Shown one piece after another: positions 3,861-9,929 of a DNA stretch of 64,000 bases. The notes under the pieces were generated by a model. The model was not told where the DNA came from, searched no databases, and saw nothing but the letters and a program-made list of their open reading frames with translations. The stretch is from the NCBI GenBank assembly GCA_963793305.1, contig CAWBZV010000003.1:704001-768000 (forward strand), written 5' to 3'. The DNA comes from an uncultured Gemmatimonadales bacterium (GTDB lineage: Bacteria; Gemmatimonadota; Gemmatimonadetes; Gemmatimonadales; Gemmatimonadaceae). Each line of letters starts with the position of its first letter. Position 1 is the stretch's first letter. A program made the position numbers and the translations under genes.

Positions 3861-4009
3861 CGGTCGGGAGAGTGTGTGGTCTCTCCTGGCGAGCGTCAAG
3901 TAACGCTGCAAAGAAAAACGTATGACGCGGGCTCCCAGCGGCGCTCCCGCGCCGCAGAGAGCCAGGTCGGTTGGACAACGCTCGGCTACGCCTCGCTATC
4001 TTCGTTTCC

Positions 4010-4969
4010 GTGCCGAACGTATGGAGGGCGGTGGGGAGGAGCGCCGAGGGCAGTTCGCATCGGCGGGCGAAGCTCCCGAATCAGGATGCGCTCCGACTGT
4101 GGAATCCACACGGCGACGGGCAATCGGTGATCGTCGCCGTCGCCGACGGCCACGGGAGCGCCACGCATTTTCGCAGCGCGACGGGTTCGCGGTTCGCGGT
4201 GGAGGTGGCCGAGCGGGTGTTGCGCGATCTCGATGGCGCGTTGCGCGCGGGCGGCGCGCTGGACGCTGAGCGCGAGCAGTGGATTCGGAAGGAGATCGTC
4301 TCGCGCTGGCGTGCGTGCTGTATCGCGGACGCCGAGGCGAACCCGTTCACGTCGGCCGAGGAGGTACGTCTGAGCGGAGCGGGCGCGCGCGACCAGATCT
4401 TCGATCGCGCGCTGGCCTACGGCTCGACGCTGCTCGCGGGGTTAGCCACCGACGGGCGCCTCGTACTGCTGCAGATCGGCGACGGCGACATCCTCGCGGT
4501 CGATGCGGCGGGATCCCAGTTCCGTCCTTTCCCCCGCGACGCTCGTCACGTCGCGAACCTCACGACGTCACTCTGTCTCCCGGACGCGGTCGACAACGTC
4601 CGCGTGGCGTCGCTCTCGCCGAACACGATCTCCCTCCTTCTCTTCGCGACCGACGGCTACGCCAACTCCTTCGCCTCAAGCGAGGCTTTCGAGCGCGTCG
4701 TCGGCCCGCAGATTCTCTCACAGGTGCGCGAGCGGGGGGTCTCCTGGGTCTCTCAGGTTCTTCCGAGCTCCCTCAAAGCCGCGGCCGAGCGTGGCAGCGG
4801 CGACGACGTGACGCTCGCGATTCTCACATGCGAGGACGCCCCAGCCGGAGCCATTGCCCCGGGGCAAGGTCGCAGCGATGCACCGGTGACGCTCAGCGGG
4901 CTCGTGGTCATGCTGGGCGTGCTGCTCGTGGTCGGGTTGTGTCTCTGGCGAGTACTGCTGCCCCGTTGA
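4010..4969 (+). CDS. PP2C-family protein phosphatase with C-terminal membrane anchor
   Basis: NQDA, VADGHGS, QIGDG, ATDG and GDDVT motifs; hydrophobic C-terminus; GTG start inferred. Confidence 0.85.
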   Translation: MPNVWRAVGRSAEGSSHRRAKLPNQDALRLWNPHGDGQSVIVAVADGHGSATHFRSATGSRFAVEVAERVLRDLDGALRAGGALDAEREQWIRKEIVSRWRACCIADAEANPFTSAEEVRLSGAGARDQIFDRALAYGSTLLAGLATDGRLVLLQIGDGDILAVDAAGSQFRPFPRDARHVANLTTSLCLPDAVDNVRVASLSPNTISLLLFATDGYANSFASSEAFERVVGPQILSQVRERGVSWVSQVLPSSLKAAAERGSGDDVTLAILTCEDAPAGAIAPGQGRSDAPVTLSGLVVMLGVLLVVGLCLWRVLLPR

Positions 4970-4971
4970 CG

Positions 4972-5027
4972 GGAAAGACGAAACCCCGGGGAATCCTCCC
5001 CCGGGGTCACGCGGCAGCCCAGGAAGC
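4972..5027 (-). ncRNA. Putative small RNA 2, antisense to a tRNA variant with anticodon loop CCAGGAA/CUAGGAA
   Basis: Predicted RNA GCUUCCUGGGCUGCCGCGUGACCCCGGGGGAGGAUUCCCCGGGGUUUCGUCUUUCC; paralogue of sRNA 1 with its own promoter and terminator hairpin. Confidence 0.65.
4983..5007 (-). terminator. Intrinsic terminator hairpin of sRNA 2
   Basis: 9-bp stem accccgggg/ccccggggt followed on the minus strand by TTCGTCTTT. Confidence 0.7.
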
Positions 5028-5034
5028 GACTGAC

Positions 5035-5062
5035 AATCTAGGTCATGCTCCGGCGCAATCAA
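5035..5062 (-). promoter_or_regulatory. Sigma70-like promoter of sRNA 2
   Basis: Minus strand TTGATT-N16-TAGATT; the -10 box ends 7 nt before the antisense sequence begins. Confidence 0.6.
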
Positions 5063-5083
5063 CGTGCAACATTCCACGTCCAC

Positions 5084-5139
5084 AAAATGCGAAACCCCGG
5101 GGAATCTTCCCCCCGGGGTGACGCGGCAGCCTCGCAAGC
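5084..5139 (-). ncRNA. Putative small RNA 1, exact antisense to the adjacent tRNA anticodon arm
   Basis: Predicted RNA GCUUGCGAGGCUGCCGCGUCACCCCGGGGGGAAGAUUCCCCGGGGUUUCGCAUUUU; first 20 nt are perfectly complementary to the tRNA (5247-5266), next 7 nt to its 5' acceptor strand. Confidence 0.75.
5094..5119 (-). terminator. Intrinsic terminator hairpin of sRNA 1
   Basis: 9-bp stem accccgggg/ccccggggt followed on the minus strand by TTCGCATTTT. Confidence 0.7.
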
Positions 5140-5145
5140 AACTAT

Positions 5146-5174
5146 AATTTAGGCCGCTCTCACAGCGTGGTCAA
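5146..5174 (-). promoter_or_regulatory. Sigma70-like promoter of sRNA 1
   Basis: Minus strand TTGACC-N17-TAAATT; predicted start near 5139 coincides with the first antisense base. Confidence 0.7.
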
Positions 5175-5201
5175 CGTGTAATCACGCACGGCGAACTAGC
5201 G

Positions 5202-5287
5202 TGCCGAGGACGGGATTTGAACCCGCACGGCCCTTTCGAGCCAGCAGCTTGCGAGGCTGCCGCGTCTACCAGTTCCGCCACCCCGGC
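5202..5287 (-). tRNA. Class II tRNA with Leu-type body and CGC (Ala) anticodon; CCA not encoded
   Basis: Cloverleaf GCCGGGG-TG-GCG GAACTGGTAGA CGC-G-GCAGC CTCGCAA GCTGC-T-GGCTC GAAA GGGCC-GT-GCGGG TTCAAAT CCCGT-CCTCGGC-A; anticodon at 5251-5253. Confidence 0.92.
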
Positions 5288-5368
5288 ACCTCGCGTGCTG
5301 GGCGAACACTGGGAATACTGCGACACAGTAGCCAAGAAAAGCGCACCACGACTAGTCAGCGGGCGAAG

Positions 5369-5397
5369 AGTATAGCGAGTCTCCGCCACGCCGTCAT
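5369..5397 (-). promoter_or_regulatory. Putative sigma70 promoter of the tRNA
   Basis: Minus strand ATGACG-N17-TATACT about 80 nt upstream of the tRNA. Confidence 0.5.
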
Positions 5398-5452
5398 CGT
5401 TGAGTTGCGAACCGTATCGTTAAGCACTGAGCGATCTACAACGAGTCGAGCG

Positions 5453-7462
5453 TCAGCGCAATCCTTGGCCTGCGCTTGTCGTTCCAAGCTGCTGCTCGCC
5501 CCAAATGTAATGCCCGAACCAGTCCAGGTTCTCCTGCATGACCGATCGTTGCTGCTTGGGTTTGTCGATTGGGTGCCCGAACCCGGGATACACGACCATG
5601 CGCACCGGCACGCCCTTATCGCGAAGCGCCTGATAGAGCTCGAACCCATTCGGGATGGGCACGCGCTTGTCGCTCCCCCCATGCTGTATCAGCGTAGGAG
5701 TCTTCGCGGTCTTGATGTACGTGATGGGCGACGTCTTCTTGTAGATCTCCGGATCATCCCACGGCGTCGCGTGGAGATACTGTCGCGTAAAGGGATGGAT
5801 GTCGGTATTGACATAGTAGGTCATCCAGTCGGAGATGCCCGCCCCGACCGAGACCGCCCGGAACCGATCGCTGAACGTGGTGATGAACGCCGAGATGTAC
5901 CCACCTTCGCTCCACCCCATGGATGCCACTCGGCTCCGATCGACGAACCCTCGAGCGATGAGATAGTCGACGCCAGAGATGACGTCGGCATAGTCCCCGA
6001 CGCCCAAGTTGCGCACATTGAGCGCCCGGAACTTCTCGCCGTATCCGGCCGAGCCGCGATAGTTCGGCCTCAGGATAACGGCGCCTTTGGAGGCAAAGAG
6101 CTCGACGGGATAGTATCGATCCGCGCCGAGCGTGGTGCGATCGACGCCGGTCGGCCCGCCGTGGATGACGACGAGCAGAGGGTATTTCTTGGTGGAGTCG
6201 AACCCAGGCGGCGTGATGAGCACGCCTTCGACGGCCGCGCCGTCGGTGGATTTCCACTGCACGAGCTGCCGTCGGGCCGACTTGAACGCCGACAGCTGGT
6301 CCCCCATGGTTGTAATCGCTTTCGGCGCGAACGGTTTGATGTCGGAGACGCCGATCTCCGGATACGCATTATCCCCGGCCGCGACGAACGCGCACGGTGC
6401 TCGCGTGCCGCGCGAGCGAGAACTGGCCGGCGATGCGCTTGGGATCGGAGAGCGTCTCGACGGTGCCAGACTTGGGATCGACGCGAGAGAGCACCTGGTA
6501 GGTACGCTCAAGCGGTGAGAAGTAGATGCCGTCCTTGTCCCAAGCGAACGGCGACGCATTCTCGTCGAACGACGTGGTGATCGCACGCGGCGTACCACCG
6601 TTCGCACTCACCACCGCGATGACCGTGTTCGTGTAGTAGAAGTACGGACTCCCATTGGCGGTCGAGAACGCGATCTCGTTCCCGTCCGGCGACCACACGG
6701 GGTTCGTATTGGGGCCGCCGGCCTCGACGATCTTCTTGACGCTCTTGTCGGCGACGGTGACGACGTAGATGGCGGCGGTGTTGGACGAGCCGAGGTCGGG
6801 ATCGCGCTGTGCGGAGAACGCGATGCGGGAGCCGTCGGGCGACCACGCGTATGAGCCGACGGTGAACTGGTCGCCCTCGGTCAGCCGCCGCGGCTCGCCG
6901 CCGGCCGCGTCGACGAGCCACAGGTGGCTCATCGAGTAGTCGCCGCCGATGACCTGGATGTCGCCGTAGGTACTATCGCGATCTTTGCGCGCTTTGGATT
7001 TCGGGTCGCGACTCACGAACGCGATGCTGCGTCCATCGGGCGACCACTCGAGCTCCGAGACGCCGGTCTCGACGCGCGTCAGCTCTCGCGCTTCGCCGCC
7101 GTTCGGCGCGATGACGTAGATCTGCGTCGAGTCCTCGAGCTTCCCGCCGGGCAGCGCGACGGGCCGCGTGGAGAGGAACGCGATCCATTGCCCGTCGGGC
7201 GACCATTTCGCGTCGAAGCTCGACCCTTTGCCGCTGGTGAGCTGCACGCGCTGTGTGCCGGCGGCGTCCGCCAGCCACAGCTCGCGCTCGAACGCATTGG
7301 CCTCCCAGTTCGTGTGGGAGACTTCGTACGCGACCCACTTTCCGTCGGGCGAGATGCGCGGCGCATTCGCGCTTTTCATCTCCAGGGACTGGTCGATCGT
7401 GGGAGCCTGAGCGTGGCGGGGAGTGCCGCACCGAGCACGAGTACAATCGCGAGTTTTCGCAT
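5453..7462 (-). CDS. S9 family peptidase (PD40 propeller plus prolyl oligopeptidase domain), two frameshifts
   Basis: Signal peptide MRKLAIVLVLG from 7462; WSPDG repeats (ORF 6369-7379); HGGP, GWSEGG, HGGSDKRVP and GFGH catalytic motifs (ORF 5453-6607); shifts near 7415 and 6390. Confidence 0.85.
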
Positions 7463-7569: not shown

Positions 7570-9929
7570 GTGAACGGCTCGATCTCCGACACCAACCGTA
7601 GCGCTGACGCGCTGTGGGCCGCTGTCGCGCGGCTCGTGGGGGCCGAGTACGACTTGGCGGGCGAGTTGAGCGCGACGACGGATGGGCGGAGGACGGCCTA
7701 CATCGCGACGCGTCGCACGCCGGAGCGCGAGCTGGTGCTGCTGGTCGTCGAGCGCGGGCCTGAGCCGGATGCCTACGAGCTGTCGTTGCACGAGGTGCTC
7801 GACGAGAGCGTGCCCGCGCGCGATCTCTATTGCCGGCACTGCGGGAACCGTCTCGAGACGTGGGCGGCCGCGTGTCCGGTGTGCCACCAGAACACGGCGC
7901 TCGCCACCGCGATCCCTCGCGGCCAGGTCTCTGACCTGAGCCTCCGCTCGGCCGTCGCCTCGGCCCTGGGCGCCGACAGTACGCCACTGGGCCAACTGCC
8001 GACTGCGTCGGGCAGCATCGCGGTGTTCGCGCGGGCGGCCCGCACCGGCGAGATCGTCGCGTTGACGCTGGAGCGGATCGGCGGGTCGACGGGGCCAACG
8101 CGCGCGGTGCCGATCGTTCGCCTACAGCGTCACAACACGCCAACGTCTACGGTCTGTCGCGGCAACGTCCGCACCGGTGGCCGAGGCAGCATCGACGGCG
8201 CCGAGCGCGCCCAAGCGGCCGTCGTCGCCGCACAGCGGCGAGATCGGGCCGTTGCCCGAGCGAGACCGCTCGCTCGTAACGACGTCGCCATCGTCCGGCG
8301 AGCCCGGCGTGCTCTCGCTCATGTGCCCGCGCTGCGGCTCGCGGTTCGAAGCCGGCGCGCGATTCTGCCCGGTCGATGGGGCCGAGCTGCGCGCGATCCC
8401 GCTGCAGGATGATCTGGTCGGCCGCGTGGTCGGCGGCAAGTTCCGCGTCGAGAAGCTGCTCGGCCAAGGCGGGATGGGTCGCGTGTACCTGGCGGAACAC
8501 GTCCGGATCGGTCGCCGTTGCGCGCTCAAGGTGTTGGCCCCGAACCTCGTCGGCGATCCCAGCTCGATTCGCCGATTCGACGGGGAAGCGCGGAACGCGA
8601 GCCGGATCGTGCATCCCAGCGTCGCGGTCGTCTACGATTTCGAGGAGACGCCGGACGGCCTCGTGTATCTCGTGCTGGAGTACGTCGACGGCGAGACGCT
8701 CGGCGCGATCCTGGGTCGTTCGGAGAACCAGCGACTCGAACGTCACGCGCTCGATGCAGATCGCGCGCGAAGTCGCCGACGCGTTGCAAGCCGCGCACGA
8801 TCTCGGGATCGTGCACCGCGACCTGAAGCCCGACAACATCATGCTGACACAGCAGGACCGCGTGAAAGTCGTGGATTTCGGGATCGCGAAGGCGATGGAG
8901 ACGGCCGGCCCGGGTCAGCACGGAGTGACGCGCACGGGGTTCGTCGTGGGCACGCCGCGCTACATGAGCCCCGAGCAGCTCGCCGGCACGAACGTCGACG
9001 CGCGCTCCGACATTTACGCGTTGGGCTGTGTGCTCTACGAGATGGTGACGGGCCGCGCCGCGTACGACGCGCCGATCACGACTGAGCGCACGATGCGTTC
9101 CCAGCCGCGGTTCCGCGAAGACGCCCCACGCGCACTCGACGCGATCATCACGAAGGCAATGTCGCGCGCCGCCGAGGGGCGTTTCCAGACGGCGCGCGAG
9201 ATGCGGGATGCATTGGACGCGCTGCTCGCTCGCGGCCGCGCCACTTCGCGCCGCGCGCTATTCACGCGGATCGGGATCGCCGTCGCCGCGGTCGCGGGCG
9301 TCGCCGCCGGGGCTGTCGCGGTCGTGAGTCGGTCGCATCCACAGTCGCCGGCCCCATCGTCGCAGTCGTCGCCGCCCGCTGCGACCGTCGTCGCCTCTAC
9401 GGCGCCGAGTGTCTCGCCACCGCCGACGCCGGTACCTTCAGCGCCGACAACGCCGGCCGCGAACACCAAGCCCGCGCAGTCGCCGCCGGTGCAGCCCAAG
9501 CCCAAGGTGCCGCAACCGACGGTACCGCAGCCGACGGTCAAGGCTCGCACGCCGACTCCGGCGTCGCCGCCTCCCGAGTCGGCCGTCACGTCAGACTACC
9601 TCGGCCGCCCACTCCAGTATTTGGTTCACGTCAAGCGAGTGATTCGTGAGGAGTGGGTCCAAGCGCTCGAGGGCGCTCAGCCGAGGGGCCCTGAGCACGC
9701 CGAGTTCGCGCTGGTGATGGACGAGACGGGGCGGGTCGTTCAGGTGAAGCCGATCTCGGTGTCGGGCCAGGCGGCCTACGACGACCCGCTCGAGTCGTCA
9801 CTGCAACGGATCGTCACATTCGGCCCGCCGCCACCGCGCGTGGGCCGCGAGGTCCACGTTGAGTTCCACGGGTTCGGTCTGACGGTTAAGGCCGGGAACC
9901 TCGAGACGCCTACAGTGCCGGCTCGCTGA
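7570..9929 (+). CDS. Hanks-type Ser/Thr kinase with N-terminal zinc ribbons, TM segment, Pro-rich linker and TonB-C-like tail; frameshifted
   Basis: GGAGG RBS then GTG 7570; CxxC pairs; [20 protein letters not shown] and GTPRYMSPE spread over three overlapping frames (shifts near 8150 and 8735). Confidence 0.8.

Follow-up and report, generated by a model that had tools for sequence, protein, structure and literature searches.

In type I toxin-antitoxin (TA) loci of the hok/sok or tisB/istR type, a short antisense RNA is separately promoted, the toxin transcript is masked by its leader and by 5'-3' pairing, and several paralogues occur. The sRNA SdsR targets mRNA, and polymorphic toxin systems carry orphan immunity genes. 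In type VIII systems both partners are RNAs, and the toxin CreT works by way of the tRNA pool (PMC12737573 and PMC11951105, in excerpt). Extra antidotes lacking a toxin of their own are described as anti-addiction modules (PMC12548467, in excerpt). Toxicity in E. coli is described for natural missense tRNAs that belong to other families (PMC5389517 and PMC10404621, in excerpt). The allo-tRNAs of Acidobacteria are soil-bacterial missense tRNAs with many anticodons and are reported to lie near toxin-antitoxin genes (PMC5389517), and the tRNA-ProX of Streptomyces and Kitasatospora, in which one body carries several foreign anticodons, is toxic if constitutively expressed (PMC10404621). The word 'antisense' occurs in neither main text, and 'toxin' does not occur in that of PMC10404621. 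A full-text search, with subscription journals largely outside its scope, gave no published report of a mistranslating tRNA combined with an antisense RNA among the matches listed, as excerpted.

The window, a 64,000-nt stretch of the source genome (G000, C3:704001-768000), contains a 483-bp cassette (4970-5452, minus strand) composed of a promoter, a leader, a Leu-body tRNA gene and two antisense units. It occupies the gap between a PP2C-family gene (3971-4969, plus strand) and an S9 peptidase gene (ending at 5453, minus strand). In a genome of the same genus (G005), the ends of the two flanking genes are separated by about 21 nt and the cassette is absent, which corresponds to an empty site. 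All elements of the cassette lie on the minus strand. A sigma-70-type promoter for the tRNA (ATGACG-17-TATACT, 5369-5397), whose activity is predicted, was located by a consensus scan and sets the predicted 5' end of a leader of approximately 75 nt (5288-5362) with predicted pairing to the tRNA D-arm and trailer. The 87-nt tRNA gene (5201-5287) has a CGC anticodon at 5253-5251 and was called Ala(CGC) by ARAGORN. The first antisense unit, sRNA1, has a predicted promoter (TTGACC-17-TAAATT, 5146-5174), a pairing segment (5120-5139) complementary at 20/20 positions to tRNA nt 22-41, corresponding to the 3' side of the D-stem plus the anticodon stem and loop, and a terminator hairpin with a U-rich tail (5085-5119). 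For the second unit, sRNA2, the predicted promoter (TTGATT-17-TAGATT, 5035-5062) comprises a -35 box TTGATT (5062-5057), a 17-nt spacer and a -10 box TAGATT (5040-5035), and fell below the threshold of the cassette-wide consensus scan. The sRNA2 pairing segment (5009-5027) addresses the stem of the resident tRNA and spells the loop CCAGGAA; the anti-loop (5019-5025) and anti-anticodon (5021-5023) imply AGG (Pro) together with C33 or U33. Its terminator (4972-5008) consists of a 12-pair stem (5008-4982) and a U-rich tail. sRNA1 and sRNA2 are, by sequence, two intact putative promoter-antisense-terminator units behind the tRNA, and the extent (4972-5062) and letters of sRNA2 in the original prediction were correct.

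Within the window, Rfam matched the tRNA alone, with no RtT or CRISPR match, and the single tRNA found by ARAGORN was the CGC gene, in agreement with the stated absence of an AGG tRNA there. Open reading frames of at least 40 aa, the minimum length listed, cross the cassette. Pfam analysis of 57 flanking ORFs from the family loci (of 107 candidates) gave no integrase, transposase or synthetase, and no cas family was found among these or among the neighbouring ORFs of the window. Two genes near the cassette, the S9 peptidase gene (5453-7379) and a Ser/Thr kinase gene (8177-9929), each appeared to be split over two frames by a frameshift or an assembly error.

The two units share the promoter context CACGTTGA. 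As had been claimed, sRNA2 retains the scaffold, promoter context and terminator of sRNA1: only 3/31 terminator and 3/12 promoter-box positions were changed, against 16/37 (43%) in the linkers. Within the pairing segment, three of the seven loop positions (tRNA positions 33, 34 and 36) and none of the 12 flanking positions were changed, which is the predicted clustering opposite the anticodon loop. The difference between linkers and flanking pairing positions gave a Fisher p of 0.0046, and the probability of all three changes falling by chance within the 7-nt loop of the 19 positions was 0.036, computed post hoc. The letters of sRNA2 come from one assembly alone; none of the four read runs examined spans 5010-5071, and the only RNA run examined covers 5394-5567. 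A contig from run X5 (depth 4.4) that extends from the PP2C gene reaches a terminator and a target whose loop is of the CGC type but whose stem differs, which hints weakly that strains differ in what they carry at the sRNA2 slot.

A total of 102 Leu-like tRNA genes with non-Leu anticodon calls were collected from related genomes. Twelve from a different context were set aside (eight from AGG pattern scans and four Gemmatimonadota-genome genes with CGG or UGG), leaving 90 distinct Leu-body genes, duplicates removed, with 14 non-Leu anticodons: CGC (28), GGC (16), GUC (8), GCG (8), GGU (7), AGC (5), GAC (4), CUC (3), CAC (3), GCC (3), AGG (2), GGA (1), UGC (1) and GUG (1). The postulated family of Leu-body tRNAs with variable anticodons was thereby confirmed; since the related genomes are not independent, its figures are descriptive counts. 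An antisense match to the gene's own arm (at least 12/14 pairs, 25-110 nt downstream) was present for 80/90 genes, or 80/102 with the set-aside genes included. Among the ten exceptions, several units aim at the variable arm, one cognate unit is third in line, and three genes have no unit downstream. At least 13/14 pairs to the own arm were reached by 50 of the first 60 genes, compared to 2.8% of non-cognate combinations. All three anticodon bases were paired in 52/52 arm-directed units, in 51 of them by Watson-Crick pairs, a result that the 12-of-14 cut partly forces. At canonical Leu loci, the antisense unit was found in 0/12 cases. On a loop-masked tree of 60 genes, the 14 anticodons required 26 changes, with 23/57 inner branches weak.

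Three Leu-body tRNAs with the CGC anticodon are encoded in G000 itself, and behind each lies an antisense unit of its own; one of these units aims at the variable arm and D-loop. Each cognate sRNA bound its own tRNA best, and little cross-talk was predicted among paralogues in one genome. A scan of G000 for stand-alone anti-arm units returned only the three known arm-directed ones with terminators. Three loci with GGU tRNAs (L125:768-852, L143 and L152) have an antisense that spells GGC and pairs via G:U wobble, which suggests a route by which an anticodon could switch without losing protection. At L141 (G717:C89), two family tRNAs (CGC and CAC) stand in tandem, neither with a downstream unit; the CAC tRNA is preceded by the unit that matches it. 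The UGC tRNA at L018, whose variable arm is shortened and for which no antisense unit could be recognised, appears to belong to a decayed cassette.

The distribution of the family was assessed with a pattern combining a Leu-type D-loop with a non-A35 anticodon, a few of whose matches lacked a tRNA call. It matched 40/401 genomes of the taxonomic family (including one unpublished genome, G592, which bears on no other result), 12/27 of a sister family and 10/17 of one genus. In a sample of the phylum, 10/93, 12/166 and 4/5 genomes of the three families of the order matched; outside the order, matches were seen in 1/2 genomes of one other family and 0/134 in the rest. Cassettes hold stable chromosomal sites across species of a genus (the MutS/TonB, radical SAM and Ro60 sites). 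BLAST matches to phages and plasmids were confined to the tRNA part, and the sole viral match to a CGC/GGC pattern was not a family member. Four cassettes lie beside Ro60/TROVE genes (L004, L006 and L035 by Pfam, L002 by eye), one of them also beside RtcB, and others beside MutS, UvrA, RuvB, Ada, Top1B, MazG or a radical SAM gene. A link of the cassettes to DNA or RNA repair is possible, the neighbour survey having no control.

To assign an amino acid identity, bacterial LeuRS identity rules were applied. The window tRNA has A73, a long variable arm, A14-A15 and U48 and no G3:U70, and shares with the family a canonical 7/5 branch (7-bp acceptor, 5-bp T-stem). Among the first 60 family genes, A73 was present in 58, A14-A15 in 60, U48 in 58 and a variable region of 15-17 nt in 57, and G3:U70, the tRNA-Ala identity pair, in none. 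A73 and a long arm are features of human tRNA-Leu, and LeuRS does not recognise the anticodon (PMC11028032, in excerpt) or uses it 'to a lesser extent' (PMC11415595, in excerpt). Because LeuRS relies little or not at all on the anticodon and the Leu identity elements are present, leucine would be misincorporated, in the case of the window tRNA at GCG Ala codons, as predicted from its sequence. In a crude ORF set of G000, GCG is used more often than any other codon (62 per 1000); GCG and GCC, the codons of the two commonest family anticodons, rank first and third, and CCU, the codon of AGG, is rare (3.6 per 1000). All five ordinary Leu tRNAs and ordinary Ala and Pro tRNAs were found in G000 by ARAGORN. 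Further G000 calls comprise a cluster of extra tRNAs at C11:2875-60941 (Ala CGC, Arg CCU, Val CAC, Arg GCG and SeC) and an Ile(UAU) gene at C5:432842.

Folding of the window precursor predicted an acceptor-stem pair probability of 0.01, compared to approximately 1.0 in the mature form; the precursor is thus predicted not to form the cloverleaf. Pairing between leader and D-arm, relative to shuffles, had a median z of -2.7 in 60 family members and -0.7 in 17 canonical Leu tRNAs. The masking of the tRNA by its leader has a parallel in type I toxin mRNAs, whose activation is delayed.

Taken together, the locus is read with moderate confidence as an RNA-only poison-antidote cassette, with sRNA2 as a spare antidote against an AGG/C33 allele of the same cassette. 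The anatomy, the complementarity, the covariation across the family, the natural AGG siblings and the recurring extra units are observed, and from them we infer transcription, Leu charging, toxicity, neutralisation and present selection on sRNA2. The poison would be a tRNA charged with leucine by LeuRS, whose anticodon reads a codon of another amino acid (here GCG, Ala) and which would be made as a precursor masked by its own leader. A separately promoted antisense of 55-60 nt would enter at the anticodon loop, unzip the arm and block or destroy the tRNA. An AGG/C33 allele of the resident cassette would escape sRNA1 through three loop mismatches, and sRNA2, as a duplicated antidote, would be kept as protection for cases in which recombination or transfer brings in such an allele. 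This role would be the same for an acquired sRNA2 as for one retained from an earlier AGG state. Speculatively, the match between antisense and tRNA could also be maintained by template switching from one inverted repeat to the other during replication.

The AGG target was then sought directly. No AGG tRNA was present among the ARAGORN calls of G000 (92% complete, 26 contigs), and the 19-nt sRNA2 target had no other match there with fewer than three mismatches. The exact stem of sRNA2 with an AGG loop was absent from G000, the metagenome scan, the viral scans and the genome samples. C33 was allowed in the metagenome scan, the first viral scan, the bare 18-mer viral scan and the genome-sample scans; the all-species GTDB scan and the second of two viral tRNA-context patterns required U33, and a C33 target (CCAGGAA) would escape them. 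The U33-AGG pattern gave three GTDB matches. One is a true cassette (L041, the same as L010) with loop CUAGGAA and an antisense that fits it; of the other two, one is a gene adjacent to IS1595 and one is due to chance. The metagenome scan gave 42 matches, all examined by ARAGORN, of which L059 is a full cassette with a loop of exactly CCAGGAA and a matching sRNA that has the same anti-loop as sRNA2. Relative to the G000 cassette C3:636248, the anticodon stem of L059 is identical, CUCGCAA is replaced by CCAGGAA, and the antisense is changed to match. As L059 is the counterpart of this CGC cassette, the loop swap that separates sRNA1 from sRNA2 has occurred naturally. On the loop-masked tree the two AGG genes stand apart, each beside CGC genes: L010 groups with L097 (support 100/99), and L059 falls inside the C3:636248 clade (98/79). 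Judging by this tree, both AGG members arose separately beside CGC members. C33 is common in the family (24/90 genes), which makes the literal CCAGGAA loop plausible, and a G in the sRNA opposite position 33 faces C33 in 13/15 cases. Viral contigs gave no match to two tRNA-context patterns and 14 matches to the bare 18-mer, none within a tRNA; a short anti-AGG pattern occurred at chance-level counts in five same-genus genomes. Of the sibling tRNA postulated in the original prediction, natural AGG relatives were found in L010/L041 and L059, each with a cognate unit; the exact stem with an AGG loop was absent from the material searched. AGG-loop variants exist, and the changes in sRNA2 are loop-focused, contrary to what would have refuted the original prediction.

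AGG-loop Leu-like tRNAs without an antisense were also seen at the 3' end of IS1595/ISXO2 transposase genes (L042, L046, L055, L070, L072 and L085), with Pfam PF12762 in 6/6 tested and a broken anticodon stem in some. Similar IS-adjacent genes were L050, L057, L075, L076, L078, L081, L083 and L084. The IS-adjacent AGG genes may constitute a second family, carried by IS elements. At L015, L115, L129 and L201, Leu-body tRNAs that lack an antisense have Pro anticodons (CGG, UGG); their neighbours are IrrE/HTH, IstB or Fic genes.

Extra units aimed at non-resident arms were found at 4/90 loci (the window, L059, L109 and L209). This is a minimum, since some known units escaped the detector, which read no more than 700 nt. 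The second unit of L059, which mirrors the layout of the window, targets its own stem with a GGC anticodon; this orphan rests on a metagenome contig, with no host genome to search. Of the three units of L109, the last is cognate and the other two are directed at arms with different stems (GUC and GCC); the second unit of L209 aims at a different CGC arm. The orphan targets of L109 (second unit) and L209 fold as anticodon arms, with 5/5 and 4/5 stem pairs by eye, and no tRNA matching them was present in G612 or G083 (88% and 98% complete). G000, G612 and G083 therefore each hold extra antidote-like units whose target is missing within these completeness limits (92, 88 and 98%). The proposal that the locus collects orphan immunity RNAs is supported to the extent that extra units recur at three other loci; 'array' overstates the case, since most loci have one unit and the maximum is three. 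Weighing against the spare-antidote reading are the rarity of AGG (2/90 genes) and of the codon it reads, the small number of loci with orphans (4/90), the missing exact target, the 17/19 pairs that sRNA2 still makes with the resident tRNA and the lack of an integrase or transposase among the flanking ORFs.

The main rival holds that the resident tRNA once carried AGG, that its antidote was duplicated, that one copy and the tRNA then changed to CGC, and that sRNA2 is a leftover without a present role. A switch between CGC and AGG breaks two or three loop pairs and for that reason needs a duplicated antidote first; anticodons do switch often, as the 26 changes among 60 genes indicate. The stem-pairing part of sRNA2 is identical to the resident arm, as is that of the L059 orphan, and the searches found no exact AGG target. 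The scenario accounts for sRNA2 nearly as well as current immunity does, and is judged unlikely. What stands against it is that, although the linkers have diverged by 43%, sRNA2 has kept its promoter, its terminator stem and its flanking pairing positions; only these intact parts argue for continued selection on sRNA2. Had sRNA2 been drifting alone, 0/12 flanking changes would be only marginally unlikely (approximately 0.05, a rough estimate); the flanks of sRNA1 and sRNA2 could also stay alike through copying from one inverted repeat to the other. The orphan stems of L109 and L209 differ from their residents, so these units are not simple relics of an earlier anticodon.

Pairing energies bear on a second rival, in which sRNA2 is a weaker second inhibitor that backs up or tunes control of the resident CGC tRNA, and spells AGG only incidentally. 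The duplex of sRNA1 with the resident arm was calculated at -48.4 kcal/mol; for sRNA2, the values were -44.0 with its perfect target, -32.2 with the resident tRNA, -24.1 with tRNA-Leu(CAG) and -20.0 with tRNA-Leu(UAG), against a background from unrelated tRNAs of up to -28.0 kcal/mol (for sRNA1). The resident, with 17/19 pairs, is hence the best anticodon-arm partner of sRNA2 among those compared, and the second unit of L023 does match its resident tRNA, at the conserved D-loop. Net binding to the folded resident tRNA was, however, -8.1 kcal/mol for sRNA2, near background, compared to -21.6 for sRNA1; the mismatches fall on the sole single-stranded entry point, and the changed letters reproduce a natural loop and anti-loop (L059). 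A role of sRNA2 as backup is therefore distinctly improbable.

A host function was also considered, in which the cassette, rather than being a selfish addiction module, is a switch by which the host mistranslates or stops growing in a regulated way under stress or phage infection, sRNA2 still being anti-AGG. The stable chromosomal sites and the several DNA or RNA repair genes among the neighbours (surveyed with no control) are in line with it, as is the raised carbenicillin tolerance reported for tRNA-ProX mistranslation (PMC10404621, in excerpt). The 14 anticodons, fast stem turnover, patchy presence (40/401 genomes) and empty G005 site fit an arms race better, leaving the switch a low probability; it is compatible with the spare-antidote reading, not exclusive of it. 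It is very improbable that sRNA2 is no orphan and that its AGG tRNA lies in an unassembled part of G000: the genome is 92% complete in 26 contigs with three family cassettes, but each of these has its own adjacent antidote, and orphans occur also in the 98%-complete G083. The alternative offered in the original prediction, that sRNA2 regulates a normal tRNA-Leu (CAG or UAG) by imperfect pairing, is scarcely credible: seven loop pairs are possible with G:U wobble in a shifted register, but the arm duplexes (-24.1 and -20.0 kcal/mol) lie within the unrelated-tRNA background and far from -44.0, with net binding of +0.9 (CAG) and -4.7 kcal/mol (UAG).

If the spare-antidote reading is true, there is a class of toxin-antitoxin systems in which a functional tRNA acts as the toxin by corrupting the genetic code; selfish conflict can then drive anticodon diversification, and orphan immunity can be built from RNA alone. 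For Gemmatimonadales as a whole, the chances appear about even that a polymorphic, protein-free toxin-immunity system operates, in which a code-corrupting Leu-tRNA diversifies its anticodon and stem to escape antidotes and orphan antidote RNAs are stockpiled. Some 'extra' tRNA-Ala, -Asp, -Arg, -Thr, -Val and -Pro calls in the order are probably Leu missense tRNAs. As the cassette is below 500 bp and should need only the host LeuRS, the scheme is directly testable in E. coli, and the cassettes offer natural, switchable pairs of tRNA and anti-tRNA.

In comparison with described missense tRNAs, allo-tRNAs have 8/4 or 9/3 acceptor branches and Ser/Ala identity, whereas the cassette family is 7/5 with Leu identity; the 7-bp acceptor and 5-bp T-stem of the window tRNA and the family exclude membership. 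The tRNA-ProX system joins a Pro body to a dedicated ProRSx, and was ruled out by the Leu body and the lack of a synthetase among the 57 flanking ORFs. RtT-type trailer repeats were rejected, there being no Rfam RtT match and no unit at any of the 12 canonical Leu loci. The cassette resembles type I TA loci in its separately promoted short antisense, its leader-masked target and its paralogues with little predicted cross-talk. It differs in that the reading involves no toxin peptide, the target is a tRNA anticodon loop and not a ribosome-binding region, and the units stand in tandem on the same strand. The antisense covaries with the tRNA anticodon arm; the ORFs crossing the cassette were listed from 40 aa upwards, with shorter ones outside the listing.

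Type VIII systems (CreTA; SdsR-RyeA) are similar in that both partners are RNAs. In the cassette, the antitoxin-like RNA is encoded beside its partner, is cognate-specific and covaries with it; its neutralising effect is predicted, as is, from sequence features, growth inhibition by the tRNA. CreT sequesters a rare tRNA and CreA represses via Cascade, whereas the predicted toxin here is a mistranslating tRNA; membership in CreTA, with its CRISPR-Cas nesting and crRNA-like antitoxin, was rejected for want of cas genes among the neighbouring ORFs of the window and the 57 flanking ORFs, and of a CRISPR Rfam match in the window. Unlike CreTA and SdsR-RyeA, the cassette has an antidote that pairs with the anticodon arm, a specificity that diversifies, and no adjacent Cas or dedicated protein gene. 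With orphan immunity genes and anti-addiction modules it shares toxin-less extra antidotes stacked behind a resident pair; those antidotes are proteins, whereas the cassette's antidotes are RNAs encoded in units of some 110 bp, of which a locus has no more than three, with predicted protection. As to a target in other strains, the loop addressed by sRNA2 is natural in L059, on another stem. The supplements of PMC5389517 could hold related loci; on the best reading, the proposed family of tRNA toxins with antisense antidotes is undescribed in the literature covered.
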